The translations under genes were made by a program, and so were the position numbers. Below the pieces are notes generated by a model. It was not told the origin of the DNA. It worked only from the letters and a program-made list of their open reading frames with translations, and searched no databases. This document shows positions 5,571-47,660 of a stretch of DNA of 64,000 nt, piece by piece (position 1 is the stretch's first letter; each line of letters begins with the position of its first letter). Origin of the DNA: Balanoglossus misakiensis (taxonomy: Eukaryota; Animalia; Hemichordata); contig CM082590.2 of the NCBI GenBank assembly GCA_040954595.2, positions 8,743,764 to 8,807,763 on the forward strand. The letters are read 5' to 3'.

Positions 5571-9744
<4,174 letters not shown>

Positions 9745-20562: not shown

Positions 20563-20628
<66 letters not shown>

Positions 20629-22062: not shown

Positions 22063-24863
22063 CAAACAAGCGTCTACAGTTCTGGATTGGAATTTATATA
22101 ATTAGGTGTTTCACAAATCTTCAATATTTCTTTATACACACAACCCAGAAAACCTGAACCGCACATAAGTATTGTAATATAATTGTTGTACCAAAAACAA
22201 GGTTACCCGAGCAAACTCTCTCATTTTCGTACCCATGGACGATTGTTCAAAAACGTCACGGAGAAAAGAACGACATATTTGTGTACTCTTTTTATGGAAC
22301 CCGATTAAATGGGTGTGGCACTCGTTTAATATATCACTTGTTCAAATTGCAACATACAGCCAAAATCAGGCGTTGATAAGATGTCCATGCATATTATATC
22401 AGTAAGCTTATTTATTTAGATGGACCAATCTAAAATGGAAAGTAAAATCATGAAAATAATGCAAACATTGGCAGCTCTTGGTGCTTTTTTGTCCAAATTT
22501 TCGTTCAGAGAATAGTCGTTTGTTCATGGCTCTACATCGATGCCGGTTCTGGCGTTTTCTATTTGATTGACACAACTAGTCCGCCCCCCCGGGGCAGTTG
22601 TGTTATGGGTAGGATAGGGTCAGTCGGTTTGAATAGACGACCCCCCCCCCCTAGGCTAGGTAAGAGTCGGGCGAGGACACTCGACCGAACGACCCTAACC
22701 TCACTACAATTATTGCAGCTAATCGGATTCAAATCAAATGTAAGGAATAGTCAGTCCATCCTCTCCTCTTTGTCTCGTACTTTTCGTCGGTCGGTTAGGA
22801 AAGACAGCGAAATTTAGATAGAGGACAAACGACGAACTCAATACGAGTGAAAAAACACAATCACAAAACTATAGGCTACCTCTGTTTTAAATCTCACTGC
22901 GTAACATCTACAGAAATTCCCATGGCCAGTTTCCGTTATTACAGTGACTGTATTTCGATATATATATATTTGGTTTACATAAACAGATATTTCACCAGAT
23001 TTGTACACGTTTTCTACCTTGAAACATTTCTTTTCACAGTAAGGCTATCGATTGTATGCAAAATCAGAATTGTCAATGAAGGTTGTTTGTGTGTGATTGT
23101 TTTTATGGCAATAAAGACTACTTTAGTGATTGTACATTTGAAGGCTGTGTGCGTTTTATAGTGTGGTTGAATAGTTCTAGCTAATTCGGTGCCCCTGGCC
23201 ACAAGATGTTTGGGATTTTGGTCTCAGCGAGCATCAATCGAAGGAACTTTGGATATAAAAGACAAATTGCGAGGTGGATAATACCATGACAGTTGCTTAT
23301 ATTACTGCTTTGAGTACTGGGCCTATACTCCTGATGTGACCTTTACGTTTTGATGGTACAGATTTACTCTTTTGAGTTTTAGCTCTGGAACTGCCCCGCA
23401 TGTATTGAATGTGTGTACTCTTAACTCATCCTAGAACAAAAACTGTGGCCTTAGGCCTACGTCTTGGCAATTTATTGGTAGGCCTTCATGTTTTGATTCT
23501 AGAACAGTTCACCATTATATACGCATTGAAGTTATGCACTCTAAGTCATCCTGGAACAATAAAATTGGATTTTGTCTGGTACAAAAGAGTGTTGTTGTAT
23601 TGTTGAATGGTGTATGATGTCATACCAATAAATCACCAAGACATTAGGTCACTCAGAGGTCACTGTACAGGTATACCGCAGAAAATGACCGCAGACATTA
23701 CTGACTTCACCGCTGGCGGCGCCCTAAAACACCCATTTCAAGCGATTTTTGTGCTATTTTCGTTACGCCACATTAGAACTTCTTCGATTTTCTTCAGAAC
23801 TATTATCAACGAAAAACTAACGAGATTGAGCTGTAAGGGCAAATATGGTGTCCTATATTATTTTCTCATATGACCACAGAAGAATGCACGTGAGCTATCA
23901 ATGTCGTCCGATGACACTTTGTAGCTCCTATCCACGTACTACAAATCGCGCCATTGGCTAACATTCGCGCGTGTTGATCAAGAAATGTTTATTATCCAAT
24001 CAACGCTTGTGTTACATAACACTTCCGGATTAGCAGTGTGGGATGGATTTTGGAAGGATAGAAATCAGCCAGGATGTGTCTATCCTACATTTTCGTAGTT
24101 TTTGATAAAAAATCAGCACAATACACCCGTGCGCTGGATATCACTTAACACCAGGAATTATTTGTGTGCCTTTATTGACATTTTTGGGACTTGGACTTGT
24201 GACACGCCACGGATTTGTTGGATGGAGAAGATTCGCTGGATTTCTACAACTACAAGAACCTAGAACAGAAAGCAGGTAAGATTCTCTGAACTGGCTGGGA
24301 CAACTGGCCTTTTACATACGTTGTAATTGCACGTGCGCCCACCAAAACTTTCTAAAACTTGGAAGTTAATGTAGACTAAGATTCTGACGTGAAACTGTCG
24401 TCGGTAATCTTGCCAAGTATAAGTCAAACGATTCTTCTGTACATTTTTGTCTCATCGCGCGCGTGACCACTACAACACGTCTAGAAAACTGAGCTTGCAA
24501 TCGACTTAAAAAGGAAATACAAAATCCCTGTAAGGTGTAATTGTAGTATGTTGTCTAATGTACTAGAATGGGATTCAAATAAAACTGAAGACGCGTTGCG
24601 TTCACTGTTTAAACTGACAGAGAAACGTGCGTCTGTTTGTCGCAAAAGTTTACTCAAAATTTGCATGAAATATACAAACAAGGAACCAACCCGCGTGATG
24701 GGCGTGGTCGGGCCTAGCCTAGCAACGCGTTTTCAAACGGCGATTTCGCTGCATTAAAATATCAAAACTTACCGAAATGTAGCGGAAAGAGCTTGATATA
24801 TGTATTCTAAGATACGGTGCGTGAAAATGTTAAGTTTAGGAAGCCAAACTTCGCGTAACGGCA

Positions 24864-26246
24864 ATGTTTCGGTGGCGCATGATTGTACTGGTCAATTTCC
24901 TAAACGGTAAAGGCAATCTCAAAGTCAACGAATGTGTAGTGACGGTTTTCGCGCCGGCATATTGGACGTATGAACCCGGAGCGACGATTTCAATCCACCG
25001 GATGCGTGAAAGATATTTTTCCGAGAACAGCTGTACCCTAGAACCGGTAAGTGTTGTTGCCATCTAATCTTCTTTTCACTTGATTGATGATATTTAAGAG
25101 AGGATGAGGGCGATCTTTGTACTTATAATATAAGGGTGTTTTAGCAGTGTTGGCCACAGATGCTTTCATTATAAATTGTATGCTTGGATCAACGGTAAAT
25201 GTTATCAGGGTTACCTAGCCATTTTGCCAGATTTCTCCTTGATATAGCAATGCATTTCTAATAGATGTAGAGCAGAAATTAATGTTCCAAAATAATAGTG
25301 TTCCCAACCCGGCAAAAACACTGAATTTATCTTTCAGAGGGTAGCAACTGCATGGAAACTGTACAGTAATGATGTAATAAATCCTTTAACAAATGAAAGA
25401 GACATGCAGCAATGATTGCAAGAAACAAGACATGCTCTCTCAAGACAAGAATGGCACACTTTCCCTAAAAGGTAAAAACGAACTTTTTTTGTTATCCTTT
25501 GATCTCACTACAACAAGATTACATTAAGGGAATTCAAAACATACTTTGGAATACATAGTTTTTATATTAAGATTTATCATTGTAATTAATAAGGTTAAGT
25601 GAATGACATTGTTTTGGAAGTCTATGTGCACCTGTATTCATGTCCCCTCCCCAATATATTTGAACAAAGTTGCCACATGAGGGCAGTATCGCACTCCAAG
25701 ATTTACTGTACACTGTTTTCTTTGACCAACAGTAACTGTCAGTTGTGCACCATACTTCTGTAAATCCACACTGTTAATTCATTCATATGAATAAAGAATA
25801 ATGCATGAATTTTGCCAGAGAAGAATATAGTGATACACAGTCACTATGAGTCATTTTAGGCCACACTGACAATTGAACAACTGTGGAAATTAATTGCTCT
25901 ACCAAACACAGTCATCACAAGCCATTTTCACTGATTCTAGGCCACATTGGCAAGCTACCAGTAATGACTATTAAAATTATTTTCAACTGTGATTTCAATA
26001 AATATTTCTTTTGTTCACAGGGTTGAGATGCTATCTGGAGGAGTTTTTGCTTCAGTAAACTCCGGCAAAGTTGTGGTGCTGTACAGTTACCCGGGATTTA
26101 CACCACTTTTCAGTGATACCACCATCTGATTCTGCATGTTTGAAAATCTGGCTGATGCTGATGAACCAGAACTTAAAGCTGTCCTGATCTGTTTAGTGTG
26201 TGAAGATCTGGAATGGAGTCTGGTTGTCTACTGGACATATATGAAA
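24864..26246 (+). pseudogene. Three-exon reading frame (24864-25046, 25338-25471, 26021-26246; 181 codons) interrupted only by two in-frame TGA codons
   Basis: Good GT/AG sites; phases 0 and 2 keep one frame throughout; TGA at 25413-25415 and 26127-26129; no family recognised. Confidence 0.5.
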
Positions 26247-27049
26247 GTAAGTCAAGCAATTTACTGTAGATGAGTTTAATTTGTATGTACCCACACACAC
26301 GCCCACAATGACATGCACGCTCGCTCACTCACTCACTCACTCACTCATTCATACATATAAGTGGCAAATAAAAGCTCTAAAGATCAAAATGACAGTTATT
26401 GATAGTCAGTTAAAACCAACACTGTTGCCATAGAATAACAAAACTATTGGCACACACATGAAATTTGGAGGAAAAACAACTCAGGTTTATTCAAATTTTG
26501 AAAGATTAGTCTGGACTGGTAATGGCACTAGGTAGCGGTACAGAATGCAGCATTGGCCTATCCCCGATTCTTGACTGGATAGCGCTTGGAGTTCGAGAGT
26601 AAGCTGTGACCTCGAATGACCCTTCCAAGGGTAGTTTCCTGTCTCGATTCTACCACTGGCGGTGCTGTGCTGCAGAACAGCATACGAGTCAATCACTTTT
26701 AGTATGCAGATAATGTCTCTAAACATAATTTTGAAGTCACTCACAGGGACCGTACTGTAACCAAGCAAAAAAAAATAAAACATTTAGGAAATGCGAAGTA
26801 TACAAAGACTAAGAAAAAAGGCTGAATTAATAAGATGACATTATGAAAATGCAAAGCCCCCCTAAAACAACAACAACAAACAAACAAACAAACAAAAACA
26901 ACAACAGCAAACAAACCCCCCAAAACAACAACTTTATGCCCTATGAAATTGAAAGACCAGTGAAAATTTAGTGGTATATAAATTATAATTTTTTTTTTTA
27001 TATTGATTCACAACAAGTCCTACTTTTGGTCACGTCAACTTTTATATGC

Positions 27050-28235
27050 ACATTAATCAAATGTACGGCTTTGGTCCAAAAACAAACGTGTTCCAACACA
27101 TCTTGCTTAACTTTAAGTCATCGAATTTGTGTATTACCAAGAGGCAGTGATATGCTTAGTCAGGTTATTGTGGCCAAAGTGGAATGTACCTGTTCTCCTT
27201 GATAAGGGCTCCACAGCCAAATTAAATTGTCAAGTTGTTTTCTAGCCAAACATGCTCGTTAAATAATAAAATGCATGGCTTGGTTCAAAACAAATTTGTT
27301 CCAACACATCTGGCCTAACTATAACAGTCGCTATATTTCTGTGTTACCAAGAGGCAATGGTATGCTTAGTCAGGTTATTGTGGCCAAAGTGGAACGTACC
27401 TGTTCTCCTTGATAAGAGCTTCACAGCCAAATTAAATTGTCAAGCTGTTTTCTAGCCAAACATGAAAATTAAGCCATAAAACATTGATCAGAAAAAGAAA
27501 GTTCTCCAGGTAAAACAATGCTTGAAAAAAAAGTCTTAGATTTAGTGTATTTATTTGTGTCCGTTGCATACAGAAAGTTTGCAACCTGAGTTTGAAATAA
27601 ATGTGCAACTCCTCTGAATAAACTCCCCATTGTAACCATTAATCCTTGTGTTACCACTACTTACTGGAGTTTTTATTATATGCTTGTTAAATAATAAAAT
27701 GCATGGCTTGGTCCAAAACAAATTTGTTCCAACACATCTGGCTTATTTTTAAGTCACCACATTTGTGTGTTACCAGGAGGCAAAGGTATCCTTGGTCAGG
27801 GTATAATCACTATTTTGGCCCAAGTGGAACGTACCTGTCCTCTCTGATAACAGCTCCACAGCTTGAGAGAGAGACAGTAAAAATTTTAACTTGTTAACAT
27901 TCTTAATGCCGAGGAAGGAGTACACTTGAGAATTTGCATTGTATAGAGAGATTCGCTACACATTCCTTTTTGTACTCTTAACAATTTGAGATTTTATTTT
28001 AAAATCTGGTTGTGGTATTAGTACCTGGTTTGATGGAGTAGAAAATATGAAGCAGAAAAAGGAATTACGCTGGTAAAACAATGATTGAAAAATAGTCTTA
28101 GATTGGTTGTGTTTATATTGTAATTATTCATCTAAATTTAAGTCACATACAGAAAGATTGCAGCCAGGTTGAATTAAATGTACGGTTCCCCTCAACCAGC
28201 TTCCCAATGGTAAAAATTATCGTGTTACCGCTAAT
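27050..28235. repeat. Diverged local duplications (~200-bp unit x3 plus a duplicated spacer)
   Basis: GGCTTGGTCCAAAACAAATTTGTTCCAACACATCT...AAGTGGAACGTACCTGT variants at ~27067, ~27277 and ~27705; ~27500-27660 resembles ~28060-28232. Confidence 0.8.
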
Positions 28236-28971
28236 TGATGATTTGGAAAAAAATTCCAACAAGAAGCTCGTTATCATGCTAGTTGTGATGTAATTGCAAC
28301 TCAGTGTTTTGCAATGTCTGGAACAGGGAATTTAGAACAGAAATTCTTCAGGGTGCCCATGCTGATAGAATTATAAAGATAGAATTATAAATGAAACTGT
28401 TAGTTATGCAGTAATGAAATTGACTGATATCATTAGATTGGTTTAATAAACAACTCAAACATTCAAACAAATGCCTGTAGAAAGTTTGGTGGAGTTGGTA
28501 TTTGTTTATCAAGCAAACACAGTAACACTATACCGGTATAATGTATGATTATTGTTTTTCTGGTTTGTCATGGTATTTTAGATGTCATTTTTTCAAATAA
28601 GATTTCTCTGTATTCACTTATTTGTTCATGCTACATTCCATTAATTTATTGTGTGTATTGTCAAAATATTTAGGGCTGTGTGCAAAAAATTCCTCAGGCT
28701 GCAAAATTGGGTCTATTGGAACACTTTATGTGACATATCCCACCATAATTTTGATGAATAGCCGATCATATATTCTGACTTTATTTGTAGTGTATAAGCA
28801 GTGTATTTACTTACAGTGTTTTTATGACTTTTTTTACAGTCACTCAAGTCTCTCTTCAAAATCACATGATTATAGCCAGAAGACGCCGTCTCAGAACCAA
28901 GTAACAGTTGTTGGACTCGAGACCACCGCAAAAGTTGGTGGGTTTTAGAGCTTTTGGTGTGTTTCAGCTGC

Positions 28972-31900
28972 ATGATGGGCAATTTTTGTTGTAAGAAAAC
29001 CAGGGCTTCCCAGAAATATGAAGAGCCACAGGTAAGTGCTTAGTGACCAGTTGAACTGAAGTTATGGGCATCAGCCTTAATTGCTGCTATTAGTCTGTGT
29101 GGAAGAGGAAAATGGTAAAGAGCACTAACAAGATTGTCAGTATACTGAAATTATGCATGATTCCAGTGCTTTGAAGCATTTGATGGACAAAATGCCGTAA
29201 AGTACATGTATGTCATATCAACACAGCTAAATTGTGATTGTAAAAACTAATTGACAAATAGTCAATGCACTGCAACACTTTAAATGCAGAGTGAAGTGCG
29301 GTTTTATAAATCCAACAGTCGCAAAATTTGCCATTTATATGGCACAATGTTTGTGTTAATATTAACGAAACTGTTTTGACATCTGTGAGTGAGTGAGTGA
29401 ATGAGTGAGAGTGTTAGAGGGTGATGGAGTCAGTTGTCGAGTTGATCACTGAAAATGTAATGTAATGCAAACAGTAATGTGTTGCACTTCATCAGATTGT
29501 GAAACGTAGTATGTCACAGTAATTGTTCATCATGACCATCAGTGTTTTTGCTAAGGATGGGGAACATTGGTAATGGATTTGGGAACCCCGGTAACATTTC
29601 TACAACCCCCTAATATTTATTGATACACCCAGGGGAAGTTCCGAACCCCGGTAAAATGACTGGGGAACTCCGGTAGATTTTACCTAGGTATCGCCCTTAA
29701 CCAAAACACTGACCATGATTTTATTGACTAGAATGTGTGACTGTGTGCTGGACACTTTCATACTTTGTGGAATGTTGTTGTTCAATGGCATTTAAGTGGT
29801 TACCAGGGTTTTAAGCTTTTGGTGTGTTTTGGGGATATTTCAGGTACACCCAACAGACAGTGAATCTGATGAGGGAACAACGGCTTTGCAGGAATATAAA
29901 GACCCACAGGTAAGTGACTTTTGAACTGAAGTTAGTCAGCTGTTTGCACTATTGAAAAATAGTCTGATCCTGCAAGGGGAAGTTTTTAACATCAAATTGT
30001 AACGTTAATAGGTGTTTCAGAATAAAGTATACTGAGATTTTTCGTGATGCCACTATACTGTTTTTGATGGACAAAATACTTTGTGTTTTGGGGATATTTC
30101 AGGTACACCTAACGGACTGTGGATCTGGTTCAGGAACAACAGCTTGGCAGGAACATAATGACCCACAGGTAAGTGACTGTTGAACTGAAGTTATGGGCAG
30201 CTAGCGTGTGCTAGAGGAAATATTGTCTGTCTGATTGAGAGGAAAACTTTAAATTGTAACACACAGTACGTGTTTCAGAATAATGTCTTTCAGTATGCTG
30301 AGATTATTCATCATTCCATTGCAATCTGTTTTATTTTGGTGAAGAATAATCATGGCATAATGTTTAGCAATTGTGTGATGTCATCTTTTTATCCACGGTG
30401 ACATCACAGTTTAATTGTTTTCACAATTCTTCATCAATGACGATTTCAATGTTTTCCTATAATATTACTGCTGTTTATGATTTCATATTGAGCATATTTA
30501 AAAAAACAAACAAGTGATGTCTGTTGATTGTTACAGCTTCTCATCAATGCCGCAAGGGATGGTGACATTGCAATGATCCAGTCGCTGAAAGCTCAGGGAG
30601 CTGATGTTAAGATACAAAACAAGGTAAATATTAACCTGACTTCTAGAGGTTAATTCTAATCAATATACAAACATTTGTTTGTTTGTTTATTTGTTTAAGG
30701 AAACCTCACATTACATTTCAATTTTTGTGACATTGTTCTCATGCTCCTCCTTCATTACTTACAGAATGGAAACACACCTTTGCACTATGCAGCAAGGTAT
30801 GGCAGTGAAGGCCGAGTCGGATTGTTATTGGAGCGCAAAGCTGATGCTAACATACAAAACAAGGTAAATACCAACCTGACTCCTACAGGTTAATTCTACT
30901 CTGATCGACAGACAAACATTTTGTTTGTTTGTTTGTTTAAGGAATCCTCACATTGCATTTAATTTTTTGTGACAATATTCTCATGCTCCTCCTTCATTAC
31001 TTACAGGATGGAGACACACCTTTGCACTATGCAGCAAGGTATGGCGATGAAGGCCGTGTCAGATTGTTATTGGAACACAAAGCTGATGTAACCATACAAA
31101 ATAAGGTAAATACCAACCTGACTCCTACAGGTTAATTCTAATCAACATACAAACATTTGTTTTTTTTTTTTTTTTATTTATTTAAGGAGACCTCACAATA
31201 CATTTCAATTTTGTGACATTATTCTCATGCTCCTCCTTCATTACTTACAGAATGGACACACACCTTTGCACTTCGCAGCAGCAAGGTATGGCAGTGAAGG
31301 CCGTGTCAGATTGTTGTTGGAACACAAAGCTGATGCTAACATACAAAACAAGGTAAATACCAACATGACTTATACAGGTTAATTCTTATCTGATCGACAT
31401 ACAAACATTTTGTTTGTCTGTTTGTTTGTTTGTTTGTTTGTTTAAAGGAAACCTCATAGCATATATGAATTGTTGTGACATTGTTCTCATGCTCCTCCTT
31501 CATTACTTACAGGATGGAAATGCACCTTTGCACTCTGCAGCAAGGTTTGGTGATGAAGGCCGTGTCAGATTGTTATTGGAACACAAAGCTGATGTTAACA
31601 TACAAAACGCGGTAAATACCAACCTATAATTCTAATCAACATACAAACAATTATATGCCTATTTGTTTGGTAATTTTTTTTTTTTTAAAGGAAACCTCAC
31701 ATTACATTTCAATTTTTGTGACATTGTTCTCATGCTCCTCCTTCATTACTTACAGAATGGAGACACACCTTTGCACTATGCAGCAAGGTCTGGTGATGAA
31801 GGCCGTGTCCGATTGTTATTGGAACACAAAGCTGATGTTAACATACAAAACAAGGTAAATACCAACCTGACTCCTACAGGTTAATTCTACTCTGATCGAC

Positions 31901-34900
31901 ATACAAACAATTTGTTTGTTTATTTGTTTAAGGAAACCACACATTACCGTTAAAGTTATTTTATAAGTTGCAGTGGTATTATAAGTCGCACCCCTTCTTT
32001 GAAAGACTTGTTTGGGAGGAGATTTTAAGGAAATGAATACAACAGAACATTGGTATTATAAGTCGCACCCCCTTTTCGGCACACACTGTCACCCAAAAAA
32101 GGCGCGTCAATTTTTGTGACATTGTTCTCATGCTCCTCCTTCATTACTTACAGAATGGAAACACACCTTTGCACATTGCAGCAGGGTGGGGTAATAAAGG
32201 CCGTGTCAGAATGCTATTGGAACACAAAGCTGATGCTACCATACAAAACGCGGTAAATACCAACCTATAATTCTAATCAACATACAAACAATTATATGCC
32301 TATTTGTTTGGTAATTTTTTTTTTTAAAAGGAAACCTCGCATTACATTTAAATTTTTGTGACATTGTTCTCATGCTCCTCCTTCATTACTTACAGAATGG
32401 AGACACACCTTTGCACTTTGCAGCAAGGTCTGGTGATGAAGGCCGTGTCCGATTGTTATTGGAACACAAAGCTGATGTTAACATACAAAACAAGGTAAAT
32501 ACCAACGTGACTTCTGCAAGTTGATGGAAGTAACATTGAAATGTGTTTATTTGTTTGTTTGTTTATTTGTCTATCTGTCTGTTTGTTTGTTTGTTTTTTT
32601 GTTTGTTTGTTTTTCAGTCAGTTTTGTTTGTTTAAGAAAATCCCCACAGTACATTTAAATTTTTTTGACATTATTCTCATGCTCCTCCTTCATTACTTAC
32701 AGGATGGAGACACACCTTTGCACTATGCAGCAAAGTATAGCGATGAAGGCCGTGTCAGATTGCTATTGGAACACAAAGCTGATGTTAAGATACAAAACAA
32801 GGTAAATATTAACCTGACTTCTGGAGGTTAATTCTAATCAATATACAAACATTTGTTTGTTTGTTTTGTTTATTTATTTAAGGAGTCGTGACCTCACTGT
32901 ACATTTAAATTTTTTTGACATTATTCTCATGCTCCTCCTTCATTACTTACAGAAAGAAGACACACCTTTGCACCTTGCAGCAGGATCTGGTGATGAAGGC
33001 CGTGTCAGATTGTTATTGGAACACAAAGCTGATGTTAACATACAAAATGAGGTAAATACCAACGTGACTTCTACAGGTTAATTCTAATCAACATACAAAC
33101 ATTTGTTTGTTTTGTTTTTTTATTTATTTAAGGAGACCTCACAATACATTTCAATTTTGTGACATTATTCTCATGCTCCTCCTTCATTACTTACAGGATG
33201 GAGACACACCTTTGCACTTTGCAGCAAGGTATGGCGATGAAGGCCGTGTCCGATTGTTATTGGAACACAACGCTGATGTTAACATACAAAACAAGGTAAA
33301 TACCAACATGACTTCTGCAAGTTGATGGTAATCAACATAGAAATTTGTTTGTTTGTCTGTTTTGTTTGTTTGTTTGTCAGAAAGTTTTGTTAGTTTATGA
33401 AAATCCCCACAGTACATTTCAATTTTGTGACATTGTTCTCATGCTCCTCCTTCATTACTTACAGTGTGGAGACACACCTTTGCACTATGCAACAAGGTAT
33501 AGCGATGAAGGCCGTGTCAGAATGTTATTGGTACACAAAGCTGATGCTAACATACAAAACAAGGTAAATACCAACATGACTTATACAGGTTAATTCTTAT
33601 CTGATCGACATACAAACATTTTGTTTGTCTGTTTGTTTGTTTGTTTGTTTGTTTAAAGGAAACCTCATAGCATATATGAATTGTTGTGACATTGTTCTCA
33701 TGCTCCTCCTTCATTACTTACAGGATGGAAATGCACCTTTGCACCTTGCAGTAGGATCTGATGATGAGGGCCGTGTCAGAATGCTATTGGAACACAAAGC
33801 TGATGCTACCATACAAAACGCGGTAAATACCAACCTATAATTCTAATCAACATACAAACAATTATATGCCTATTTGTTTGGTAATTTTTAAATAATAACA
33901 CATGATAGCGAGGGCAATATCACGATTTGAAGCCTGCACGAGGGATGGTGATCTCTGACTATAATATTGATGATGCCCGAGCCGCAGGCGAGGGTATCAT
34001 CAATATTGTGGTCAGAGATCACCAGCCCGAGAGCAGGCTTCAAATCGTGATGTTGCCCGAGCATCATGTGTTATTAATTTTATTACACCGAACATTTGAA
34101 CGTACATACAAGGCAGGCATAGAAGAACGTAGACACGCGTCCATATGTCGTACGTTGCTGAGAATGTAAAATGTCTCGATCTCCCAAGAATTATACGATA
34201 CCTACTTCGAACTTAGATTATTTTCAAAATACTGCACTGTTGGTTGCGATTTTGTTGTATTTACTGTCCGTTTGTGGTAAAATATCGTCCAGTTGAACAG
34301 GTGTTAAGCCTATGTGTCGCTTTGAAGCCATAGATGCGGGAGTTGACTGATCGTGGAGGAAGCCATTGAACGACAGTTTGGAACGCGCAGAAGTCGCGCG
34401 CAGAACACAAAACAACCCAGCGGGCAATATCAGCGCACGCGACAGGGCTTTATCAACTCTAGCCATGTTATATCACTTTTTTTTCTATATCACGTGAGCG
34501 CGTCTCAGCCAATCACGAATATGGTATAATACGTGAGGTGTAATAATTTTTTTTAAAAGGAAACCTCGCATTACATTTAAATTTTTGTGACATTGTTCTC
34601 ATGCTCCTCCTTCATTACTTACAGAATGGAGACACACCTTTGCACTTTGCAGCAAGGTCTGGTGATGAAGGCCGTGTCCGATTGTTATTGGAACACAAAG
34701 CTGATGTTAACATACAAAACAAGGTAAATACCAACGTGACTTCTGCAAGTTGATGGAAGTAACATTGAAATGTGTTTATTTGTTTGTTTGTTTATTTGTC
34801 TATCTGTCTGTTTGTTTGTTTGTTTTTTTGTTTGTTTGTTTTTCAGTCAGTTTTGTTTGTTTAAGAAAATCCCCACAGTACATTTAAATTTTTTTGACAT

Positions 34901-37900
34901 TATTCTCATGCTCCTCCTTCATTACTTACAGGATGGAGACACACCTTTGCACTATGCAGCAAAGTATAGCGATGAAGGCCGTGTCAGATTGCTATTGGAA
35001 CACAAAGCTGATGTTAACATACAAAATGAGGTAAATACCAACGTGACTTCTACAGGTTAATTCTAATCAACATACAAACATTTTTTTTTTTTTTTTTTTA
35101 TTTATTTAAGGAGACCTCACAATACATTTCAATTTTGTGACATTATTCTCATGCTCCTCCTTCATTACTTACAGGATGGAGACACACCTTTGCACTATGC
35201 AGCAAGGTATGGCGATGAAGGCCGTGTCCGATTGTTATTGGAACACAACGCTGATGTTAACATACAAAACAAGGTAAATACCAACATGACTTCTGCAAGT
35301 TGATGGTAATCAACATAGAAATTTGTTTGTTTGTCTGTTTTGTTTGTTTGTTTGTCAGAAAGTTTTGTTAGTTTATGAAAATCCCCACAGTACATTTCAA
35401 TTTTGTGACATTGTTCTCATGCTCCTCCTTCATTACTTACAGTGTGGAGACACACCTTTGCACTATGCAACAAGGTATAGCGATGAAGGCCGTGTCAGAA
35501 TGTTGTTGGTACACAAAGCTGATGCTAACATACAAAACAAGGTAAATACCAACATGACTTATACAGGTTAATTCTAATCAGCATATAATCATTTGTTTGT
35601 TTGTTTGTTTGTTTGTTTGTTTAAAGGAAACTTCACATTACATTTCAATTTTTGTGACATTGTTCTCATGCTCCTCCTTCATTACTTACACTTACAGATT
35701 GGAGACACACCTTTGCACATTGTAACAAGGTATGATGATGAAGGCTGTGTCAGATTGTTATTGGAACACAAAGCTGATGCGAATATACATAACAAGGTAA
35801 ATTCCAACATGACTTCTACAGGTTAATTCTAATAAGTGTTACCCGGTAGTTGTTACGTAGGTTAAGTTTGGGATTGTTTCTTGTGACCAGGTGTATTTGT
35901 TGTTTACTTTCGTTATTTGAATATTTGCATGACGAGGTGTGATATACTACTCAGACTTAACGCTGTCACGATGTTGTCGCGTCCTTCGTCTAAACTATGG
36001 AACTTTTTGTGGGACATTGGACTTGATCATTTAAATTTCCACACCTGGTCACACTCAAAGATAGTCACTTATTTTTGTGCATTTTCAGTGTGCAGTGTTT
36101 AATGTTTAATTATTACTTTATTTACTATAATTTAAATTTACCATAATTAAGGTATTACCGCTGTTGTTTGACTGTTGACCATCTTTGTTGCGTGCAGCGC
36201 TGTTTATTTTATTTTAAAATGAGCCATTCAGGCAGTCCGATTTGTTTACTGCCCTGTTTCGGCATTGAATAGCTAGGGTGTCGTAACATTACATAAAGCT
36301 GATGCTAACATTCAAAACAAGGTAAATACCAATACAGAAACAAATACAGTCGAACGCGGATAATCCGAACCTGCTGGGCGGGTTAGATTTAGTTTGGATG
36401 ATTGATTGTTCAGATAATTGATATTAGCACGTCTGAACAAAGGAAATTGACCACACCATTGGGGCATGCGTATGTTTTGATGTTTCCCACATGCACATGC
36501 ATTTTCCATGCACTCACAAAAAGAAGTTAATAAAATAACATGTATTAAGAGTTCGAAAGTTGAAAAGAAAAAAGACGAAGTCAAAGCTGCAATACTCTGA
36601 TCCATTCAACATCGTATGCGTTATGGTCATCGTACCAAACCATGAACGTGCGTAAGCCTTCCATGGCCACGGCAGAATTCACTAGAGCTGGTGTCCCATG
36701 CTCTTTATCGTTCTCATTTTCATGCCATGAGTTTATTTCTGAGAAACAAAGTCGGTGATTTCATCTTACGTTATCATTTCGAAGCTGTCATAGTTCTCGC
36801 TAGTCTCCAAATCTTCGCTGTCAGTGGCATTCAAACCGCACAAAACAAGCTCTCCGCACGAGGTCACTTCTGCAAGTGACAACTTGGCTGTCATTCATAT
36901 TGGTGCTGCCATAGTCACCGGCCGCGACCCGACACGCCTTCACTGTATCGCGGCTGTCCATGCGTTTGAAACGCTGTGTCTTTGATGTTGAAACCTCTGA
37001 CAATGTCCACCGTCCGCTCGCACGGGTCTAAGACGGGCGATATCATCCAACCCATGGCTTTCATTTGTATTATCAAAGACGGTGCTAAGCTTATTTCCAA
37101 GATTGACCAAGATTTTTACGTGTTTTACACTCGAGTGTGAAATCCTAGTGTCAAATGGTACGATACACGAAAGTGTGACACTCTGTTGTCGTAAAATGAT
37201 TGAAATATTCAATGATAAAAACGTTCTTAACACGTCCTGCCGCCCTTTACAACTGAAACAATTAGAACTGATGGTCTAAATTGTCAGTTTTTCTGCGGAA
37301 ATGTCACAGACCGCCGAGAGTACAGGTGCTTGGCCTGGCTAACTTAATGTTCAGGGACTGTACGTACCAAAGCGTTCGGATAAACGGTGTCCGGATAATC
37401 GGCGTTCGACTGTACTTGACTGTTTATTTTTATCTCTTTATTTATTTTTTTCATATAGGGAAACCCTTCATGTAATTGATGCTAATATACTGTAGAAATC
37501 TTTCATTACTGAAACTATGGACACCTTTACAATATGCAGCAATGAATACAGTGTCAGATTGTTGTTGGATCTCAAATCAAACTGTGGATGTACCCGTATT
37601 CATAGTCAGTTTCATTCTAGTACAATGATCATGTTTTTTTTAAGACATTTATGTAGAAATCGTTATTGTAAAGAAGATATGGTGACAGTTTTAGATTACT
37701 CTTTCAGTTCATCTTTCAACAAACTGAAACTAAAAAGCCTATTTAGAGGAGATACCAACCACTATGGTTTCCTCATTTTGGAGTTTTGTTTTGCGTCCTT
37801 TGCAACCACTACCACCACCATTGTAAGTTGGTACTGCAGGTATGTTTTGCGGCACTGTTTATACGCACCTATTATAGTCCCGATCTTGCTGTATCTCTTA

Positions 37901-40900
37901 CATGAAGTAATTGCTTTTGTTTTTTTTGCACAGGATGGCAACACAGCACTCCACATAGCAGCAATGAGCAGCTCTTGGAGACGGGATTATGTTGTGAAAC
38001 TGTTGCTGCAATATGGAGCTGATATTGACTGCAAAAATAAGGTACAATCTTCTGTTGCTTATTGCAATATTTTATTCTGTTTCACTGACACCATGCATTC
38101 TGATTAACTCAACCCATTTTTAAAGTTGAATCTTCACAACCATTGAATTTGAAATTCAGTTTGTATGAGTGTACAATTTTGAATTATCAGTTGGTAATAC
38201 CTGTTTTAACAGTTATTAATAATAGTATTAGCTTATCAATATCAACATCATAATTGATAGTTACTTCTATCCCAATAAAATTTAGACTGGAAAGACACCA
38301 CTTGATGTTGCAAGTTGGTCTGTTCAGGTTGTGCTGTTGGATTACATTAGGGTGAGTGTAATTTTTTGGGGGTCATGAATTTGAATAATTTATAACCTGA
38401 AATATGCAAATTCTTATGTACCCTGCATTAAGAGTGTCCATAAATATCAATGTAATAATTTGTTACATGTATTTTCTGATTTCTTTATTTAACAAGAAAC
38501 GAGATGAGTTCAGTGACCTGATGACGGAATCAGGTATGGAATGTGACACTTTTAAGTTGTTCTTCGCTGGAGATGGTGGAGTTGGTAAGACTACACTGTT
38601 GAAGTCACTTCAGAGGGTATGTTGATATTTATTGTTTTGCGCAACAGTTCTAGTAAGCCATAACATTCACATTGTAGTATGTATGGTGCATATTAGAAAA
38701 CTACTACAGGTACAAATATGGATAATTTAATATACACATAGTTGATGAAATTTCATTGTTTTGTGAAGATATTTTGTGCTGGCATTATGGAGTTCACAGG
38801 ATAAACTCTTCATTGCATTTTTATTTTTCCAATCATTGTATGAGGGAGGAGTTGAGGTTGTATTTCATTTGTTCTTTGTGTTTTAATTACCCATGGCCTT
38901 TGAAAAGGGAATATTGTAGTCGTGCACACATTGCACAGCTATGCTTTTGTCTACAAGCATATTGTGCACTTCAGTGTAGACGTTTGTACAATTTTATAAT
39001 TCACAATCAAGTACTATAAAACGGGTTATTTTCGCGAGCAATAAATTTTCGTGAAATACGCGAGAGCCAAAAATACGTGAACATAAAAGTCACGTAAAAA
39101 TGTTTTTTCGGAGATTTGCCTCTTTTGATATCGCGAAAAATTCCTGTCGTGAAAATAACCCGTTTTACAGTATGGTCATACACAAAGACAAAAAATAACT
39201 AGAAATTGTTTTCTTTCACTTTGCCTTATCAAAGAGTGAAGAAACAACTCTGGAATCTGAAGAAAGTGAACACATTCCCACACCTGGTATTGATGTCCAA
39301 AGTGTTCATATTCCTGATGTAGGAAATGCCAGTGTTTGGGATTTTGCCGGCCAGGCTGAGTATTACGTCACTCATAACATGTTTCTGGGAGCACCCAATG
39401 CTGTCTCCATATTGGTGTTCAAAGCTACAGACGAGAATGGTCAACTCAACACCTTTGAACGTGTGTTCAAGGAGGTAAGAATCTTCACAGTAAATTAACT
39501 AAACATGCTTGAGACTGGAAGTCCATATGTATTGTATCATTTATTACTTTCCATCCCCCAAAGCAGAAGAAACTGACAATTCCCAAAATATCAATTCTTG
39601 AATTATTATCTCATATTCATGATCCCTTCAAATTTGCCTCAGAATTAATATAATATTTAATTATACAAATATTCTCATTGGTAGATTTTGTTTTGGTTGC
39701 GGTTTCTGAAAGGAACAACCCACATGGACAGGTATTCATTCGATGAGCCCGGTGAAGGATACAAGAAACCAGTGGTGATATTGGTTGCAAGTCGAGCTGA
39801 TCAGTTGAAGAGGGTGGATATGGCTCTAGGTTGGTGTTGTCAGCTCATGCAAATACTGTACAATGTCAAGCTCATTGTAACATGTGTTGTTCAACTGTTG
39901 ATAAATTGATCGATAGTGAGAAGAACATGTATAGTTGTTGGACATGTCAAAGTTCGAAAAAAGCAACCAGCTATTACTGTGTCCATTTTAAGCATTAGCT
40001 AGCTGTCACTAAGAAAAAGATTCACAGCTGAACTTTATGCCTTACTTTCTGCAAATCGAATTATGCAGCAATTAGATTTGTGTTATAATTTCACAGCTCG
40101 TCATATGCTAGACGAAGTTCTGACAAGAGCACAGGAAATGTTTCAAGATTATTTGGACATCTGCACTAATGACATATTTCTGGTGAATTGCCGTGATTCT
40201 ACAGACAGTAAAATGAAGCAAGTCCGCGCCTGTTTACATCAGAAAAAAGTAATAATATTTTGCTGTTGTCAATATTGCCTCTGAATTGTTCTACCTTTAT
40301 AAACACTCTATTAATTTCAGTTACCATACAATTACAAGATTCAGTTTCATGCCTCCACCTTGAAAAAATGCAAAGACTCAAAGTGTTGGCAACATACTAC
40401 CAATGTATGTTTGATGACCCTTGCTTAAGCACCACTTGCAAATGATTAGGTTACATATTTATCCAATTTTAGGAGCCACCAAAATGTGAACTGTTTCAAA
40501 ATGTAACATAACATAGTCACATTTAACAAATATGTGATTACCTCCTTGTGTTTCATTCATCACTTGTGAGACTTGCTTGACAAGTTATGCTGTTATTTAA
40601 TATTTCTTGTTGTAATTTTTAGACAGTAAAAACACTTCCAAGCGTGTGTACCAAGATAATGGAAAAGAAGAGGGAATTATATGACGACTTCCCAGCTCTT
40701 TATTGGATAGAATATGTGGCAAGAATCAAAGAAATATACCCCACGATTGACGAAAGGTTCTTACAAAAAGCCACCAACTATCTGCATGACATAGGAGAGG
40801 TCAGTAACAATAAAGACCCAACGTGTTGCTCATCCATTCTCTTTCAGTACATATACTAGGCTGAGTGAATGTGATATTTCCATCAGTTACAAATTATTTT

Positions 40901-43049
40901 CTCTTCAGAAATCTGCAAAGGCAAATTTTACAATGTATTATTGTCTCACTGTATGATTGTAATTGTTTGTGGTTTTGGATCCCCAATATTTCTTTAATCA
41001 TAATAATATCACAAAATTACCAAAGATTATGTTAAGGTGACTTTAAGATTAAACTATTCAACTTGGCTGCCTGTGTAAAAATTGGCTTGTTGTGAGATTT
41101 TGAGGATGAACTAAAAACATATGCATGTCAAAAATTTGTCCGATGATAATTGTTTAAACAATAATGTATGCCCCAATATGCAATAATTGACAAAAGTACA
41201 TATTATGGAGTAAATGCAATGATTTCTTTTGGCTAGGGTTGATATATCAATGAGCAGGATCATTATGGTATTGGCATCAAATGGTTTAGATAATTCATTA
41301 TCAGTGGCATACTGTAGTCCCCACTGGAGCACTAGAAATGAAATTATTGAAGTTCTAAATACAGTTGTTGTGTAATTCAGTATTTAAGGATTGTGCCTTG
41401 CATACATTCATGAATCAAAATATTTCTTTTCTTGTGTACAGCTTTTGTTTGTGAAGAAGTCATCTTCGGAAAGAGAAGATGTCGTGGTATTGGATCCAAG
41501 ATGGTTGTGTTACAGGATATTTGGACCAATGTTGGCCACCCCTTTATTTGCAGAATTCAGTTCCAGATTCAAGAGAGATTGCTTTCAGACGATGGATCAG
41601 ATAGAAGATGTACTTGGTGACCGTGTAAACAGCAAACTTCTCATCGACCTTCTGGAAGATTTTGAGCTTCTCTGTCATGCACATGGCCTCACAAGGACTG
41701 GAGAGAAACTTTTCGTCATACCAGGGCTTCAAGACGATGACATGCCTAAAGATCAATGGAAATTGAATCGCATGAAGAAAATCTACCGTGGAATACGGTT
41801 TGAATGCCATGATGAATCAGATTCCTTTACAGCAGGCTTCTTCCCAAGATTACAGACCCGTCTATATAAGCGTTTCACCAACCTTGGCCAACCACCCAGT
41901 GGCTTATGGAAAAATGGTATCAAAGTGTGCCATGATATTGAAGGTCTTGTCTTTATGACCAATGGGAGAAGGGCAGTCAATGTCTGCGTACGAGTTGAAG
42001 ACAAGAATTTAATTGGTGAGGGCTACAAGCTTCTTGAGATGGTTTCCAAAGACATACAGGATGTCTTCTCAATTGCCTGTCCAGGCAACAGGATGAATCA
42101 GCTTATCCTGAGTGCAGATTCTCTTGCAAACCACGACATGGAACAAGTTGGGTTTTACACTCTCGATGACGTGCTACACGCAGAAGATATGGGGAGGAAA
42201 GTGTACAACGAGGAAGTTGGAAAAGCAGAAGATGTTTGTGACCTGCTTTGTCAAGGTCATGACACAACGATCTTACGACATAAGTGGAAACGCTGTGATA
42301 TCAAATGGATGCTTGAAGAAACCAAAAGAAAACTGACCATGAGTATGGACATTCAACGTGCACCATCTTTGCACTACGCCAGCATGGCCGAACATATGGG
42401 AATCGTCTACCAGGATGTCAGGGCACTTGAAGAGATTGCGGGTCGGGCAGGCAAACCAGTTACAGTATACATCTTTGTAGAGTGGTGTCGTAGATGCGCA
42501 GAGAAGAAACGTCATCAAAGGGAAAAAGACACCACAGAATTCCCGGCCACTTCTCATGACACACATGATGTTGATAGTGGTTTTGCAACGATGTCACCGT
42601 CATCACAACAACCAGACCCAAGCGTTCAATTCCGACGAGGAAAAGACACCACTACAGCTGCAGAATTCCCGGCCACTTCTCATGACACACATGATGTTGA
42701 TAGTGGTTTTGCAACGATGTCACCATCATCACAACAACCAGACTCAAGCGTCCAATTCCGACGAGGAAGAGACACCACTACAGCTGCAGGTGCCAGAGCC
42801 ATCTCACCTGACATAGAGACCTCCGAAGGTCGTTCAGCAAAAATGTCACAGTCATCAACATCGTCACCCCAACAAGATTCTGATGAAGAAGTGAATGCTC
42901 AGAAAACAAGACGGAAGTATCCACATTTAAAGGGACCTGTCTTCGAAAGCAACTTTGAGAATCTGTTGGCAATATTCAGCACCATGGGAAGAGAGGACAT
43001 GATCGGATTGATTGAAGAGATGTTCGAGACATTGGAAGAACGCAGATAG
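28972..43049 (+). CDS. Kinase-less ROCO protein (DAPK-like ankyrin-Roc-COR-death domain), ~29 coding exons, ~1526 aa if all exons are included
   Basis: Exons: 28972-29031, 29844-29909, 30103-30168, 30537-30623, 17 ankyrin exons 30765-35796, 37934-38041, 38286-38351, 38497-38616 (P-loop GDGGVGKT), 39235-39474 (PTPGID, WDFAGQAEYYVTH), 39685-39829 (VILVASRAD), 40097-40248, 40623-40799 (YLHDIGE), 41442-43049 (VVLDPRWLC, GFFPRLQ, LWKNG, death-domain helices). All junctions are GT-AG and in frame. Confidence 0.9.
29540..29711. mobile_element. MITE with CAGTG...CACTG TIRs and 5-bp TSD ACCAT (hAT5-like)
   Basis: Near-identical to 2793-2960; ACCAT on both flanks. Confidence 0.82.
31947..32106. mobile_element. 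Truncated pogo/Tigger-type MITE fragment inserted in an ankyrin-cassette intron
   Basis: Interrupts the conserved intron after a TA; starts CCGT; repeated TATAAGTCGCACC motifs. Confidence 0.55.
33890..34546. mobile_element. Non-autonomous hairpin element (Crypton-like) inserted in an ankyrin-cassette intron
   Basis: ~180-bp imperfect palindrome 33894-34075 with loop GAGCCGCAGGCGA, then TTATTACACC...GGTGTAATAA inverted pair; absent from sister introns 31612-31755 and 32253-32395. Confidence 0.7.
35837..36288. mobile_element. Probable solo LTR (TGTTAC...GTAACA) adjoining a 5'-truncated ankyrin exon
   Basis: TG...CA inverted termini, ~450 bp, unrelated to cassette introns; no TSD, consistent with an adjacent deletion. 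Confidence 0.45.
36293..36321 (+). pseudogene. Remnant 3' end of an ankyrin cassette exon
   Basis: AAAGCTGATGCTAACATTCAAAACAAG/GTAAATACCAA with no acceptor or 5' part. Confidence 0.8.
36347..37412. mobile_element. Non-autonomous Tc1/mariner (pogo/Tigger-like) DNA transposon, ~1.07 kb
   Basis: TA-CAGTCGAACGCGGATAATCCGAAC ... GTCCGGATAATCGGCGTTCGACTG-TA; only fragmented minus-strand ORFs inside. Confidence 0.82.
39014..39170. mobile_element. 157-bp TA-flanked MITE
   Basis: TIR CT[A/G]TAAAACGGGTTATTTTC[G/A]CGA at both ends, TA TSD. Confidence 0.85.
41442..43049 (+). CDS. ROCO terminal exon: COR domain plus interrupted death domain
   Basis: Longest ORF in the window; acceptor TGTACAG at 41441; COR motifs VVLDPRWLC, FVIPG, YRGIRFEC, GFFPRLQ, LWKNGI; AATAAA at 43315. 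Confidence 0.93.
   Translation, partial: LLFVKKSSSEREDVVVLDPRWLCYRIFGPMLATPLFAEFSSRFKRDCFQTMDQIEDVLGDRVNSKLLIDLLEDFELLCHAHGLTRTGEKLFVIPGLQDDDMPKDQWKLNRMKKIYRGIRFECHDESDSFTAGFFPRLQTRLYKRFTNLGQPPSGLWKNGIKVCHDIEGLVFMTNGRRAVNVCVRVEDKNLIGEGYKLLEMVSKDIQDVFSIACPGNRMNQLILSADSLANHDMEQVGFYTLDDVLHAEDMGRKVYNEEVGKAEDVCDLLCQGHDTTILRHKWKRCDIKWMLEETKRKLTMSMDIQRAPSLHYASMAEHMGIVYQDVRALEEIAGRAGKPVTVYIFVEWCRRCAEKKRHQREKDTTEFPATSHDTHDVDSGFATMSPSSQQPDPSVQFRRGKDTTTAAEFPATSHDTHDVDSGFATMSPSSQQPDSSVQFRRGRDTTTAAGARAISPDIETSEGRSAKMSQSSTSSPQQDSDEEVNAQKTRRKYPHLKGPVFESNFENLLAIFSTMGREDMIGLIEEMFETLEERR
42535..42789 (+). repeat. In-frame 126-bp (42-aa) coding tandem duplication
   Basis: EFPATSHDTHDVDSGFATMSPSSQQPD[P/S]SVQFRRG[K/R]DTTTAA x2. 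Confidence 0.97.
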
Positions 43050-43457
43050 ACTGTCTCAAAAGAAGAGCAGATAACATGGGAAAACCAGAATTTGATTGCT
43101 TCAAATTCCACCCAGTAAACTAAAACCATGTGTGTTCAATGGCTATAGAAATGTCAGGGGTAACTGAAACATAAATCTGATTTGGAAATATTATAGCCAT
43201 GCACCCCTATGCGACAGTTCAGTTCAGTTTTCTGAAAGTGCCTCAGAGAACTCTTGTTTGGAAATGGTTAAGTAATTCGTCTGAAATGCAAAATAGCATT
43301 TTGGACAGCAGTACAATAAAGGCATTCTTCATATAAAATATAAACATTCTCAGATGTCATTTTTCATGTTAAGGACACATTAAGAACAAATTTTAGGTCC
43401 TGTACACCAAATTAAAAAGCTTGACTCATACTGATTGAAATCTAACACAAATCTCAG

Positions 43458-46014: not shown

Positions 46015-47660
46015 AAGGAAAATTCCCGACTTTGCCAACTTTGTTGAAATTGTGATTTGTGGACATTTTTTATGGGTTATAGCTCATGAAAATTGTCAGA
46101 ACAGGAAAAATTCCCGACTTCGCAAAATTTGGTGAAATTGTGATTTGGGGACATATTTTATGGGTTATACCTCATGAAAATTGTCAGGACAGGAAAAATT
46201 CCCCACTTTGCCAACTTTGGTGAAATTGTGATCTGGGGACATATTTCATGGGCTATAGCTCATGAAAATTGTCAGGACAGGAAAAACTCCCAACTTTGCA
46301 AACTTTGGTGAAATTGTGATCTGGGGACATATTTCATGGGCTATAGCTCATGAAAATTGTCAGGACAGGAAAAACTCCCAACTTTGCAAACTTTGGTGAA
46401 ATTGTGATCTGGGGACATTTTTCATGGGTTATACCTCATGAAAATTGTCACAACAGAAAAAAATTCCCCACTTTGCCAACTTTAGTGAAATTGTGATCTG
46501 GGGACATATTTCATGGGTTATACCTCATGAAAATTTTCAGGACAGGAAAAACTCCCAACTTTGCAAACTTTGGTGAAATTGTGATCTGGGGACATATTTC
46601 ATGGGTTATAGCTCATGAAAATTGTCAGGACAGGAAAAACTCCCAACTTTGCAAACTTTGGTGAAATTGTGATCTGGGGACATATTTCATGGGTTATAGC
46701 TCATGAAAATTGTCAGGACAGAAAAAATTCCCGACTTTGCCAACTTTGGTGAGATTGTGATCTGGGGACACATTTCATGGGTTATAGCTCATGAAAATTG
46801 TCAGGACAGGAAAAACTCCCAACTTTGCAAACTTTGGTGAAATTGTGATCTGGGGACATATTTCATGGGCTATAGCTCATGAAAATTGTCAGGACAGGAA
46901 AAACTCCCAACTTTGCAAACTTTGGTGAAATTGTGATCTGGGGACATTTTTCATGGGTTATACCTCATGAAAATTGTCAGGACAGAAAAAATTCCCCACT
47001 TTGCCAACTTTGGTGAAATTGTGATCTGGGGACATTTTTCATGGGTTATACCTCATGAAAATTGTCACAACAGAAAAAAATTCCCCACTTTGCAAACTTT
47101 GGTGAGATTGTGATCTGGGAACATATTTCATGGGCTATAGCTCATGAAAATTGTCAGGACAGGAAAAACTCCCCACTTTGCAAACTTTGGTGAAATTGTG
47201 ATCTGGGGACATATTTCATGGGTTATAGCTCATGAAAATTGTCAGGACAGGAAAAACTCCCAACTTTGCAAACTTTGGTGAAATTGTGATCTGGGGACAT
47301 ATTTCATGGGTTATAGCTCATGAAAATTGTCAGGACAGGAAAAACTCCCAACTTTGCAAACTTTGGTGAAATTGTGATCTGGGGACATATTTCATGGGTT
47401 ATAGCTCATGAAAATTGTCAGGACAGGAAAAACTCCCAACTTTGCAAACTTTGGTAAAATTGTGATTTGGGGACATATTTCATGGGTTATAGCTGATGAA
47501 AATTGTCAGGACAGGAAAAACTCCCAACTTTGCAAACTTTGGTAAAATTGTGATCTGGGGACACATTTCATGGGCTGTAGCTGATGAAAATTGTCAGGAC
47601 AGGAAAAATTCCCAACTTTGCAAACTTTGGTGAGATTGTGATTTTGAGACATATTACAGG
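46015..47660. repeat. 88-bp satellite, ~18-19 copies
   Basis: Unit ATCTGGGGACATATTTCATGGG[C/T]TATAGCTCATGAAAATTGTCAGGACAGGAAAAACTCCCAACTTTGCAAACTTTGGTGAAATTGTG; starts at 46231, 46319, 46407... Confidence 0.98.

Follow-up and report, generated by a model that had tools for sequence, protein, structure and literature searches.

Apparent recombination in an array of one-repeat ankyrin exons of a predicted ROCO GTPase gene from the acorn worm Balanoglossus misakiensis

Introduction

Brown-algal LRR-ROCO candidate immune receptors (PMC3341825; PMC11378527) combine a Roc-COR module with N-terminal leucine-rich repeats (LRRs), each encoded by one symmetric exon, and form a multi-copy family with recombined arrays, dead intronic repeat exons and binding-face variation; splicing variation and strong positive selection have been reported in them as well. 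In fungal NLRs with high internal conservation (HIC; HNWD, ANK and TPR types; PMC13449251), near-identical repeats with few variable face positions are gained, lost and shuffled by unequal crossing-over, and the array is linked to a P-loop NTPase and an effector of cell death. DAPK1, a member of ROCO group 3 (PMC6337361), carries ankyrin repeats, Roc-COR and a C-terminal death domain, and has no LRR. Here we analyse a predicted gene with likenesses to all three, which occupies positions 28975-43049 on the plus strand of a 64,000-nucleotide stretch of the acorn worm Balanoglossus misakiensis (GCA_040954595.2, contig CM082590.2, positions 8,743,764 to 8,807,763; hereafter the window) and in which an array of single-repeat ankyrin exons precedes Roc, COR and a predicted death domain.

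An earlier note on this window, made from its letters alone, had proposed an animal ankyrin-based counterpart of the algal receptors, diversified by splicing, recombination or both. The account towards which we lean, with some reserve, is that a death-domain signaller switched by a GTPase would have as its recognition arm a constitutively long ankyrin solenoid, with recombination altering the repeats from allele to allele.

Results

Ankyrin cassettes and their splice signals

By scanning positions 30000-38100 for acceptor and donor motifs, we found exactly 17 cassette exons (30765-35796; all coding features described here are on the plus strand), sixteen of 99 nt and one (31251-31352) of 102 nt, each in phase 0 and each encoding one stop-free ankyrin repeat, which agrees in place, number and size with what the earlier note had described. 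Cassettes 1-9 start at 30765, 31007, 31251, 31513, 31756, 32154, 32396, 32703 and 32953, and cassettes 10-17 at 33197, 33465, 33724, 34625, 34932, 35175, 35443 and 35698, so the first spans 30765-30863 and the last 35698-35796. Cassette 1, the sole one scanned, matches Pfam Ank at E 6e-10. Ankyrin exons of 99 nt are common in animal ankyrin genes.

The near-invariant splice signals claimed before are also present. A 29-nt acceptor block occurs in 16 exact copies in the window, all of them preceding cassettes 1-16, and in front of cassette 17 the block carries a 6-nt duplication (exact in 16/17 cassettes); the donor GTAAAT follows 17/17 cassettes as well as the N-cap ankyrin exon (30537-30623). 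The cassette exons differ pairwise by 0-23 nt and comprise 16 distinct DNA and 15 distinct protein sequences, and their introns are homologous too, so that each exon is repeated together with its intron, as a unit of about 240-310 bp (~245 bp). Such regularity is far beyond chance. The acceptor block had 0 matches in metagenome contigs, where a search for relatives of the gene by protein gave 50 pattern matches, none confirmed. A cassette reservoir outside the gene was not found in the 64-kb window, all 20 cassette-like matches being on the plus strand and inside the gene.

The N-cap exon and the two exons that follow the array (37934-38041 and 38286-38351) are located as claimed, the latter being a C-cap exon in the gene model; exon 37934-38041, previously taken for a cap, is itself the terminal ankyrin repeat, a full repeat of 36 aa (Pfam Ank E 3e-10). 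While the array layout of the earlier note thus stands, it had overlooked the mosaic exons and, at the 3' edge, two decayed cassettes (both described below), and had left three small related 5' exons undescribed.

Recombination within the array

Exact stretches of 471, 307, 212 and 121 bp are shared within the array and reveal block duplications, the two longest being located precisely (32318-32788 = 34547-35017, exact over 471 bp, and 33220-33526 = 35198-35504, 307 bp). Cassette 14 (34932-35030) is a chimera whose 5' side equals cassette 8 (identity through 385 nt upstream and 86 nt of the exon) and whose 3' side equals cassette 9 (38 nt of the exon and 53 nt of the intron); by these identities it is the mark of a one-unit deletion via a crossover inside an exon. 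Cassette 12 (33724-33822) is a mosaic that reads as cassette 4 on its 5' side (191 + 21 nt exact) and as cassette 6 on its 3' side (54 + 67 nt exact). Moreover, the 3' end of the N-cap exon together with its donor side matches cassette 8 at 84/87 nt, which implies that the N-cap exon exchanged sequence with the array, and 79 of the 210 pairs of informative exon sites are incompatible in the four-gamete test. A whole-unit recombination test (p 0.0002) was set aside because a misaligned intron flank had inflated it.

Changes private to single units were also observed, including a 159-bp insertion (31948-32106) in the intron before cassette 6 and a 659-bp insertion with a 190-bp palindrome (33888-34546) in only one copy of a duplicated block. 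The two decayed cassettes at the 3' edge of the array flank a transposon-like insertion (36347-37412), which ends in terminal inverted repeats, has TA on either side and which we take to be Tc1/mariner-like. The first (36291-36321) retains the 3' third of the exon and an intact donor, its acceptor block and 5' part having been replaced by unrelated DNA; the second (37499-37580) is about 68-70% identical, has deletions and no donor. The first, truncated cassette could give a 45-nt in-frame exon (36277-36321) with a weak acceptor, whose inclusion would break the ankyrin stack.

From these comparisons, the array evidently grew by tandem duplication of exon plus intron, blocks included, and its pattern is as expected of unequal crossing-over and conversion between tandem units. 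Since crossovers fall inside exons, ordinary unequal crossing-over between tandem units is indicated rather than a dedicated exon-shuffling mechanism. Inherited recombination as the source of change in the array is thereby supported, and the reshuffling of a one-repeat-per-exon array that the earlier note had suspected can be traced in the exact block duplications, the chimeric cassettes 14 and 12 and the N-cap exchange. It might be asked whether cassettes 13-16 are instead the second haplotype of cassettes 7-11, set in tandem by a partial assembly artefact, as the exact sharing of 471 and 307 bp between the two blocks would allow. However, the blocks differ by a one-unit deletion (the chimeric cassette 14), single substitutions and the 659-bp insertion, the same process is seen inside the array in older partial duplications of 212 and 121 bp, and 12-13 cassettes would remain even then; we regard such an artefact as very improbable.

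Constraint on the cassettes and alternative sources of diversity

Across the units, the acceptor block shows 0 changes in 29 columns, compared with 40/67 in the flanking intron and 14.5/22 at synonymous sites, and it contains branch-point-like motifs, a pyrimidine tract and AG. Codons outside the binding face have 0.36 replacements per site versus ~0.6 for intron and synonymous sites (p 0.017 below neutral), and core codons 0.17 (here and below, selection p values are uncorrected, three position sets were tried, and counts are minimum allele counts on non-independent copies). Constrained non-face codons together with an invariant splice block imply that the cassettes are maintained as coding exons.

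These features bear on two other possible sources of diversity. If programmed somatic rearrangement built different cassette sets per cell, as in lamprey VLR or V(D)J systems, modular in-frame cassettes would suit it and the invariant 29-nt block could act as a recombination signal; the idea has been proposed, not demonstrated, for Ectocarpus (PMC3341825). However, the block is explained by splicing (branch-point-like motifs, pyrimidine tract and AG), the germ-line copy of the gene is complete and in frame as it stands, and the 20/20 plus-strand cassette-like matches inside the gene leave no reservoir elsewhere in the window. Elements resembling recombination signal sequences (RSSs) as flanks of the cassettes were rejected by a motif scan of the window, which used RSS consensus motifs and gave 28 loose matches, 4 of them in the array region and 3 of these within exons with a 13-nt spacer. 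We find this alternative hardly credible.

Combinatorial splicing is a second candidate for the main source of diversity, in which identical splice sites would allow in-frame skipping and many solenoid variants per allele. The cassettes are all symmetric (phase 0) and share identical splice sites, alternative splicing of repeat exons occurs in brown-algal ROCO genes (PMC11378527), and the RefSeq isoforms X1 and X3 of amphioxus LOC144872558 differ by exactly 99 aa, equivalent to three whole ankyrin repeats in compatible register. On the other hand, recent duplication alone gives identical splice sites, RefSeq isoforms are automated predictions, and the ankyrin region differs in only 1/6 isoform pairs, two hemichordate genes with long homogenised arrays differing elsewhere. 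A sequence at ~30497-30516 is complementary to TTTG tracts of the array introns, but the site is of low complexity and its pairing (-17.3 kcal/mol) is equalled by 3% of 958 background probes; docking-site type RNA pairing was considered weak on this ground and was not accepted. Combinatorial splicing as a main source seems quite unlikely to us. The site at 30497-30516 is A-rich, lies just upstream of the N-cap acceptor, and its core 10-mer occurs at only 3 plus-strand places in the window.

Variation at the predicted binding face

Our face set consists of the six positions at which a published library of ankyrin binders was randomised (PMC4308713), taken to correspond to cassette positions 33, 1, 3, 8, 11 and 31. 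These positions carry 15/37 extra amino-acid states (p 0.0014); the variable recognition domain that had been proposed is supported as far as variation is concentrated at binding-face codons. Variable ankyrin positions have been described to lie on the binding surface (PMC8229355, PMC8683736). Face replacements amount to 1.07 per site against 0.60-0.65 (p 0.04 against intron, p 0.10 against synonymous sites), by which positive selection on binding-face codons is suggested; pN/pS (replacement over synonymous variation) of the cassettes overall is 0.83. Another face set, with pN/pS 1.9, was not relied on because its positions had been picked after inspecting the sequences.

Gene model and 5' exons

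A predicted gene model of 29 exons is obtained when 4 exons upstream of the 17 cassettes and 8 downstream of them are connected at GT-AG sites; its frame of 4578 nt has one terminal stop only and encodes 1525 aa in the order ankyrin stack, Roc, COR and a predicted death domain interrupted by an insert. The model protein has 37% identity to Glandiceps talaboti XP_077996865.1 across 1208 columns, and the gene is an intact-looking animal gene, nearest to acorn-worm genes. Phase 0 is found in 27/28 model introns, including 9/10 outside the array; given the latter count, phase 0 is a property of the whole gene and not special to the array.

The predicted first coding exon (28975-29031), which has an in-frame ATG one codon upstream and may extend upstream, begins with MGNFCCKK, a start that we take to resemble an N-myristoylation plus palmitoylation signal. 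It is followed by two related 66-nt phase-0 mini-exons (29844-29909 and 30103-30168) recognised by exon comparison, and exon 1 (57 nt) with these two constitutes a second, older triplicated exon-plus-intron unit (window positions 28940-30332). Upstream, no kinase was detected, in that 0/71 plus-strand open reading frames of at least 32 aa in 21900-30536 match Pfam, a search that tiny or more distant exons would escape; likewise, tblastn with the proteins collected for comparison found nothing outside 30500-43100, the query set being without the kinase-bearing DAPK1 rows. Exon-like stretches at 24940-26227 were tried as part of the gene and not joined, having internal stops and no Pfam match. 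These plus-strand stretches have good splice sites and could be a pseudogene or 5' untranslated region.

Roc GTPase, COR and predicted death domain

By motifs and Pfam, the Roc exons are 38497-38616 (P-loop GDGGVGKT), 39235-39474 (TPGID, WDFAGQ), 39685-39829 (VASRAD) and 40097-40248. Exon 39235-39474 matches Pfam Roc at 28.6 bits (cut-off 27) and the P-loop exon gives a weak Roc match (E 0.017); the acceptor at 39235 is uncertain because relatives have ~10 extra residues there. Directly after Roc follows the COR domain (40623-42209), which takes in exon 40623-40799 and extends into the 5' part of the last exon, with a Pfam COR-B match at 41802-42209 of 30.2 bits (cut-off 27). An AlphaFold2 model of the last exon (mean predicted local distance difference test score 77.7) matches bacterial RocCOR and LRRK1/2; against RocCOR 3dpu, Foldseek gives E 1.5e-8 and VIA gives Z 13.6 with a root-mean-square deviation (rmsd) of 3.9 over 230 aligned residues. 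With Roc and COR-B both above the Pfam cut-offs, as the proposal of a ROCO GTPase implied, the gene is by its sequence a member of the ROCO family.

The death domain that the earlier note had named was not detected by Pfam, and a sequence search of the PDB with the last exon gave nothing below E 0.2, but it was recovered by fold comparison of the predicted model, as a predicted death domain (42291-43049, the stop codon ending at 43049) that is split by a disordered insert. Residues 284-535 of the model match the death domains of MyD88, IRAK2, Pelle and FADD (Z 9.2-10.9), the best matches being MyD88 (Z 10.9, rmsd 2.8, 98 aligned) and IRAK2 (Z 10.8, rmsd 2.0, 93 aligned). These Z values are middling for helical bundles, yet death folds make up most of the structures matched there. 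The disordered loop within the predicted domain is enlarged by a 126-bp coding tandem repeat (42535-42857); in the sister protein from Ptychodera, an insert at a comparable position is shorter. For NACHT and NB-ARC, only sub-threshold P-loop matches were obtained (NB-ARC 16.2 bits vs 23.5, NACHT 14.4 vs 26.7). Judged from these profiles, the NTPase is Roc, and the protein, without a STAND ATPase, is not an NLR.

Family relationships

Named relatives come mainly from Ptychodera, Saccoglossus, Glandiceps, Branchiostoma and echinoderms and are mostly labelled 'DAPK1-like', and multiple copies are present in Ptychodera, Saccoglossus, Glandiceps and amphioxus. We constructed a quick Roc-COR tree of 56 rows hand-picked from the named matches (one isoform per gene except one Amphiura pair; midpoint root). 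The protein of the window has P. flava XP_070550841.1 as its sister within a hemichordate clade of 18 rows (support 100 in the Shimodaira-Hasegawa-like approximate likelihood ratio test, SH-aLRT), and the DAPK1 rows lie across a separate branch (SH-aLRT 99); another quick tree gave a similar picture. On this topology, the protein belongs to a clade of DAPK-like ROCO proteins that lack a kinase and have expanded in hemichordates and amphioxus, and the gene is not DAPK1, given that no kinase was found and that the branch is separate.

To describe the arrays, we called homogenised those with a nearest-neighbour repeat identity of at least 0.70, a measure of our own and not the T-REKS Psim. The value is 0.82 over 19 repeats for the protein of the window and 0.39-0.44 for the six DAPK1 rows. 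Among 44 invertebrate-deuterostome rows, 27 have at least 4 detected repeats and 12 of these 27 have homogenised arrays, compared with 0/6 for DAPK1; such arrays sit on scattered branches of the tree. In 7/7 inspected arrays, the library positions are more variable than the remainder and the consensus repeats are distinct. Relatives are annotated with long arrays of 13, 18 and 24 repeats in a single protein, and XP_070546714.1 (P. flava), with 18 repeats, has a consensus similar to that of the protein of the window. C-terminal modules differ among relatives (Death, CARD, caspase and GT4). In five members, most named from amphioxus, Roc-COR (usually with ankyrins) is joined to a GT4 glycosyltransferase, OTU-family, caspase or multiple CARD module, which suggests effector swapping. 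Surveys of the amphioxus immune repertoire reportedly mention combinations of a GTPase with death folds. In the literature covered, outside which most subscription journals lie, no description of the family in hemichordates or of an ankyrin-exon ROCO array was found.

It is conceivable that a recombination-prone unit grew and was homogenised under purifying selection alone, in a scaffold or signalling GTPase without defence recognition. The overall pN/pS of 0.83, a face excess that is not significant against synonymous sites (p 0.10), the phase 0 of 9/10 introns outside the array, the variability of face positions in ankyrins generally (PMC4308713) and the wide occurrence of repeat expansion by tandem duplication (PMC1553488) would all be compatible with such near-neutral expansion. 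Against it, DAPK1 lacks the homogenised arrays that recur in the multi-copy clade, relatives carry death-fold or conflict-type domains as their C-terminal modules, and high internal conservation has been described as rare generally and enriched in NLR-like proteins (PMC13449251). On balance, we consider near-neutral expansion unlikely.

Other features of the window

A gene for a G-protein alpha subunit (Pfam G-alpha), presumably Gq-like, has its last exons at 8935-9096 and 9514-9741 (plus strand). A small spliced gene candidate at 19286-21990 (plus strand) has a signal-peptide-like first exon, a Cys-containing exon at ~20691-21057 and no Pfam match. Satellite arrays are present at 46019-47655 (88-bp unit) and 54946-56833 (70-bp unit).

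Discussion

Inherited unequal crossing-over and gene conversion have likely yielded the duplicated blocks and mosaic exons of the array, and the protein is likely a fast-evolving intracellular sensor that would signal by way of its death domain. If the array is indeed the changing recognition arm of such a signaller, as we lean towards, the usual transcript would include most or all cassettes and give a solenoid of about 19-20 repeats, and individuals would carry alleles with different numbers and orders of repeats. Binding of a ligand to the concave face could then couple to the Roc-COR switch and in turn to death-domain assembly, with signalling possibly at the membrane via a lipidated N-terminus. 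In-frame skipping of cassettes may add a further layer, which is not needed to explain the sequence. An immune role would be in keeping with the architecture and the behaviour of the family: high internal conservation of repeats has been linked to length polymorphism and NLR-like sensors (PMC13449251). Death-fold immune proteins have been described as expanded in particular lineages of these marine groups, and bacteria as having conflict systems that combine an AP-GTPase with COR (PMC8195603).

Several points weigh against this account. The array was read from one haplotype only, and a test of recombination clustering similar to the pairwise homoplasy index, applied to exons only, was not significant (p 0.08). 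Positive selection at the face is borderline (p 0.04-0.10), and the library face positions vary most in ankyrins generally (PMC4308713), so relaxed constraint could explain much of the pattern. The family sample was hand-picked and consists of automated gene models. Finally, the lipidation-like MG..CC start rests on a predicted first exon and occurs in 0/55 other rows of the 56-row set.

A broader and more doubtful proposal is that an overlooked family of ROCO-GTPase immune receptors exists in acorn worms and amphioxus, whose sensors would act as a natural DARPin library diversified by exon recombination plus in-frame skipping, with interchangeable death-fold effectors, and which would be an animal analogue of NLRs based on a GTPase. 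Were the sensor function to be true, invertebrate deuterostomes would have a receptor family in which ankyrins, a Roc-COR GTPase and death folds realise the design known from fungal HIC NLRs and brown-algal LRR-ROCOs; many 'DAPK1-like' database entries would gain a function and ROCO proteins a place in animal non-self sensing; and a compact 5-kb locus would be available in which inherited, somatic and splicing diversity can be told apart. Even if it is wrong, the locus is still a clear record of repeat-protein growth by exon-plus-intron duplication.

Compared with DAPK1, which shares its overall domain composition, the gene has no kinase that we could find and about 19-20 homogenised repeats versus 6-7 detected diverged ones, besides its separate position on the Roc-COR tree (SH-aLRT 99). 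The 'DAPK1-like' proteins XP_070550841.1 and XP_070546714.1 (Ptychodera flava), XP_077996865.1 (Glandiceps talaboti) and those of Saccoglossus and Branchiostoma are of the same clade and architecture; their names are automated, and the MG..CC start is in none examined. Fungal HIC NLRs, to which the coupling of changing repeats with a P-loop NTPase and a death effector may be likened, use a NACHT or NB-ARC ATPase, whereas here a Roc-COR GTPase switch is present, with the sensor N-terminal, the effector C-terminal and an own exon for each repeat. The parallel with brown-algal ROCOs drawn by the earlier note extends to symmetric exons of one repeat each, recombination that can be traced, dead repeats in introns, binding-face variation and membership of a multi-copy family. 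However, the intronic repeats of Ectocarpus include inverted ones, while 20/20 cassette-like matches here are on the coding strand, and the algal units are LRRs (72 nt, phase 2), while those of this animal gene are ankyrins (99 nt, phase 0), with introns homogenised together with exons and a predicted death domain after COR.

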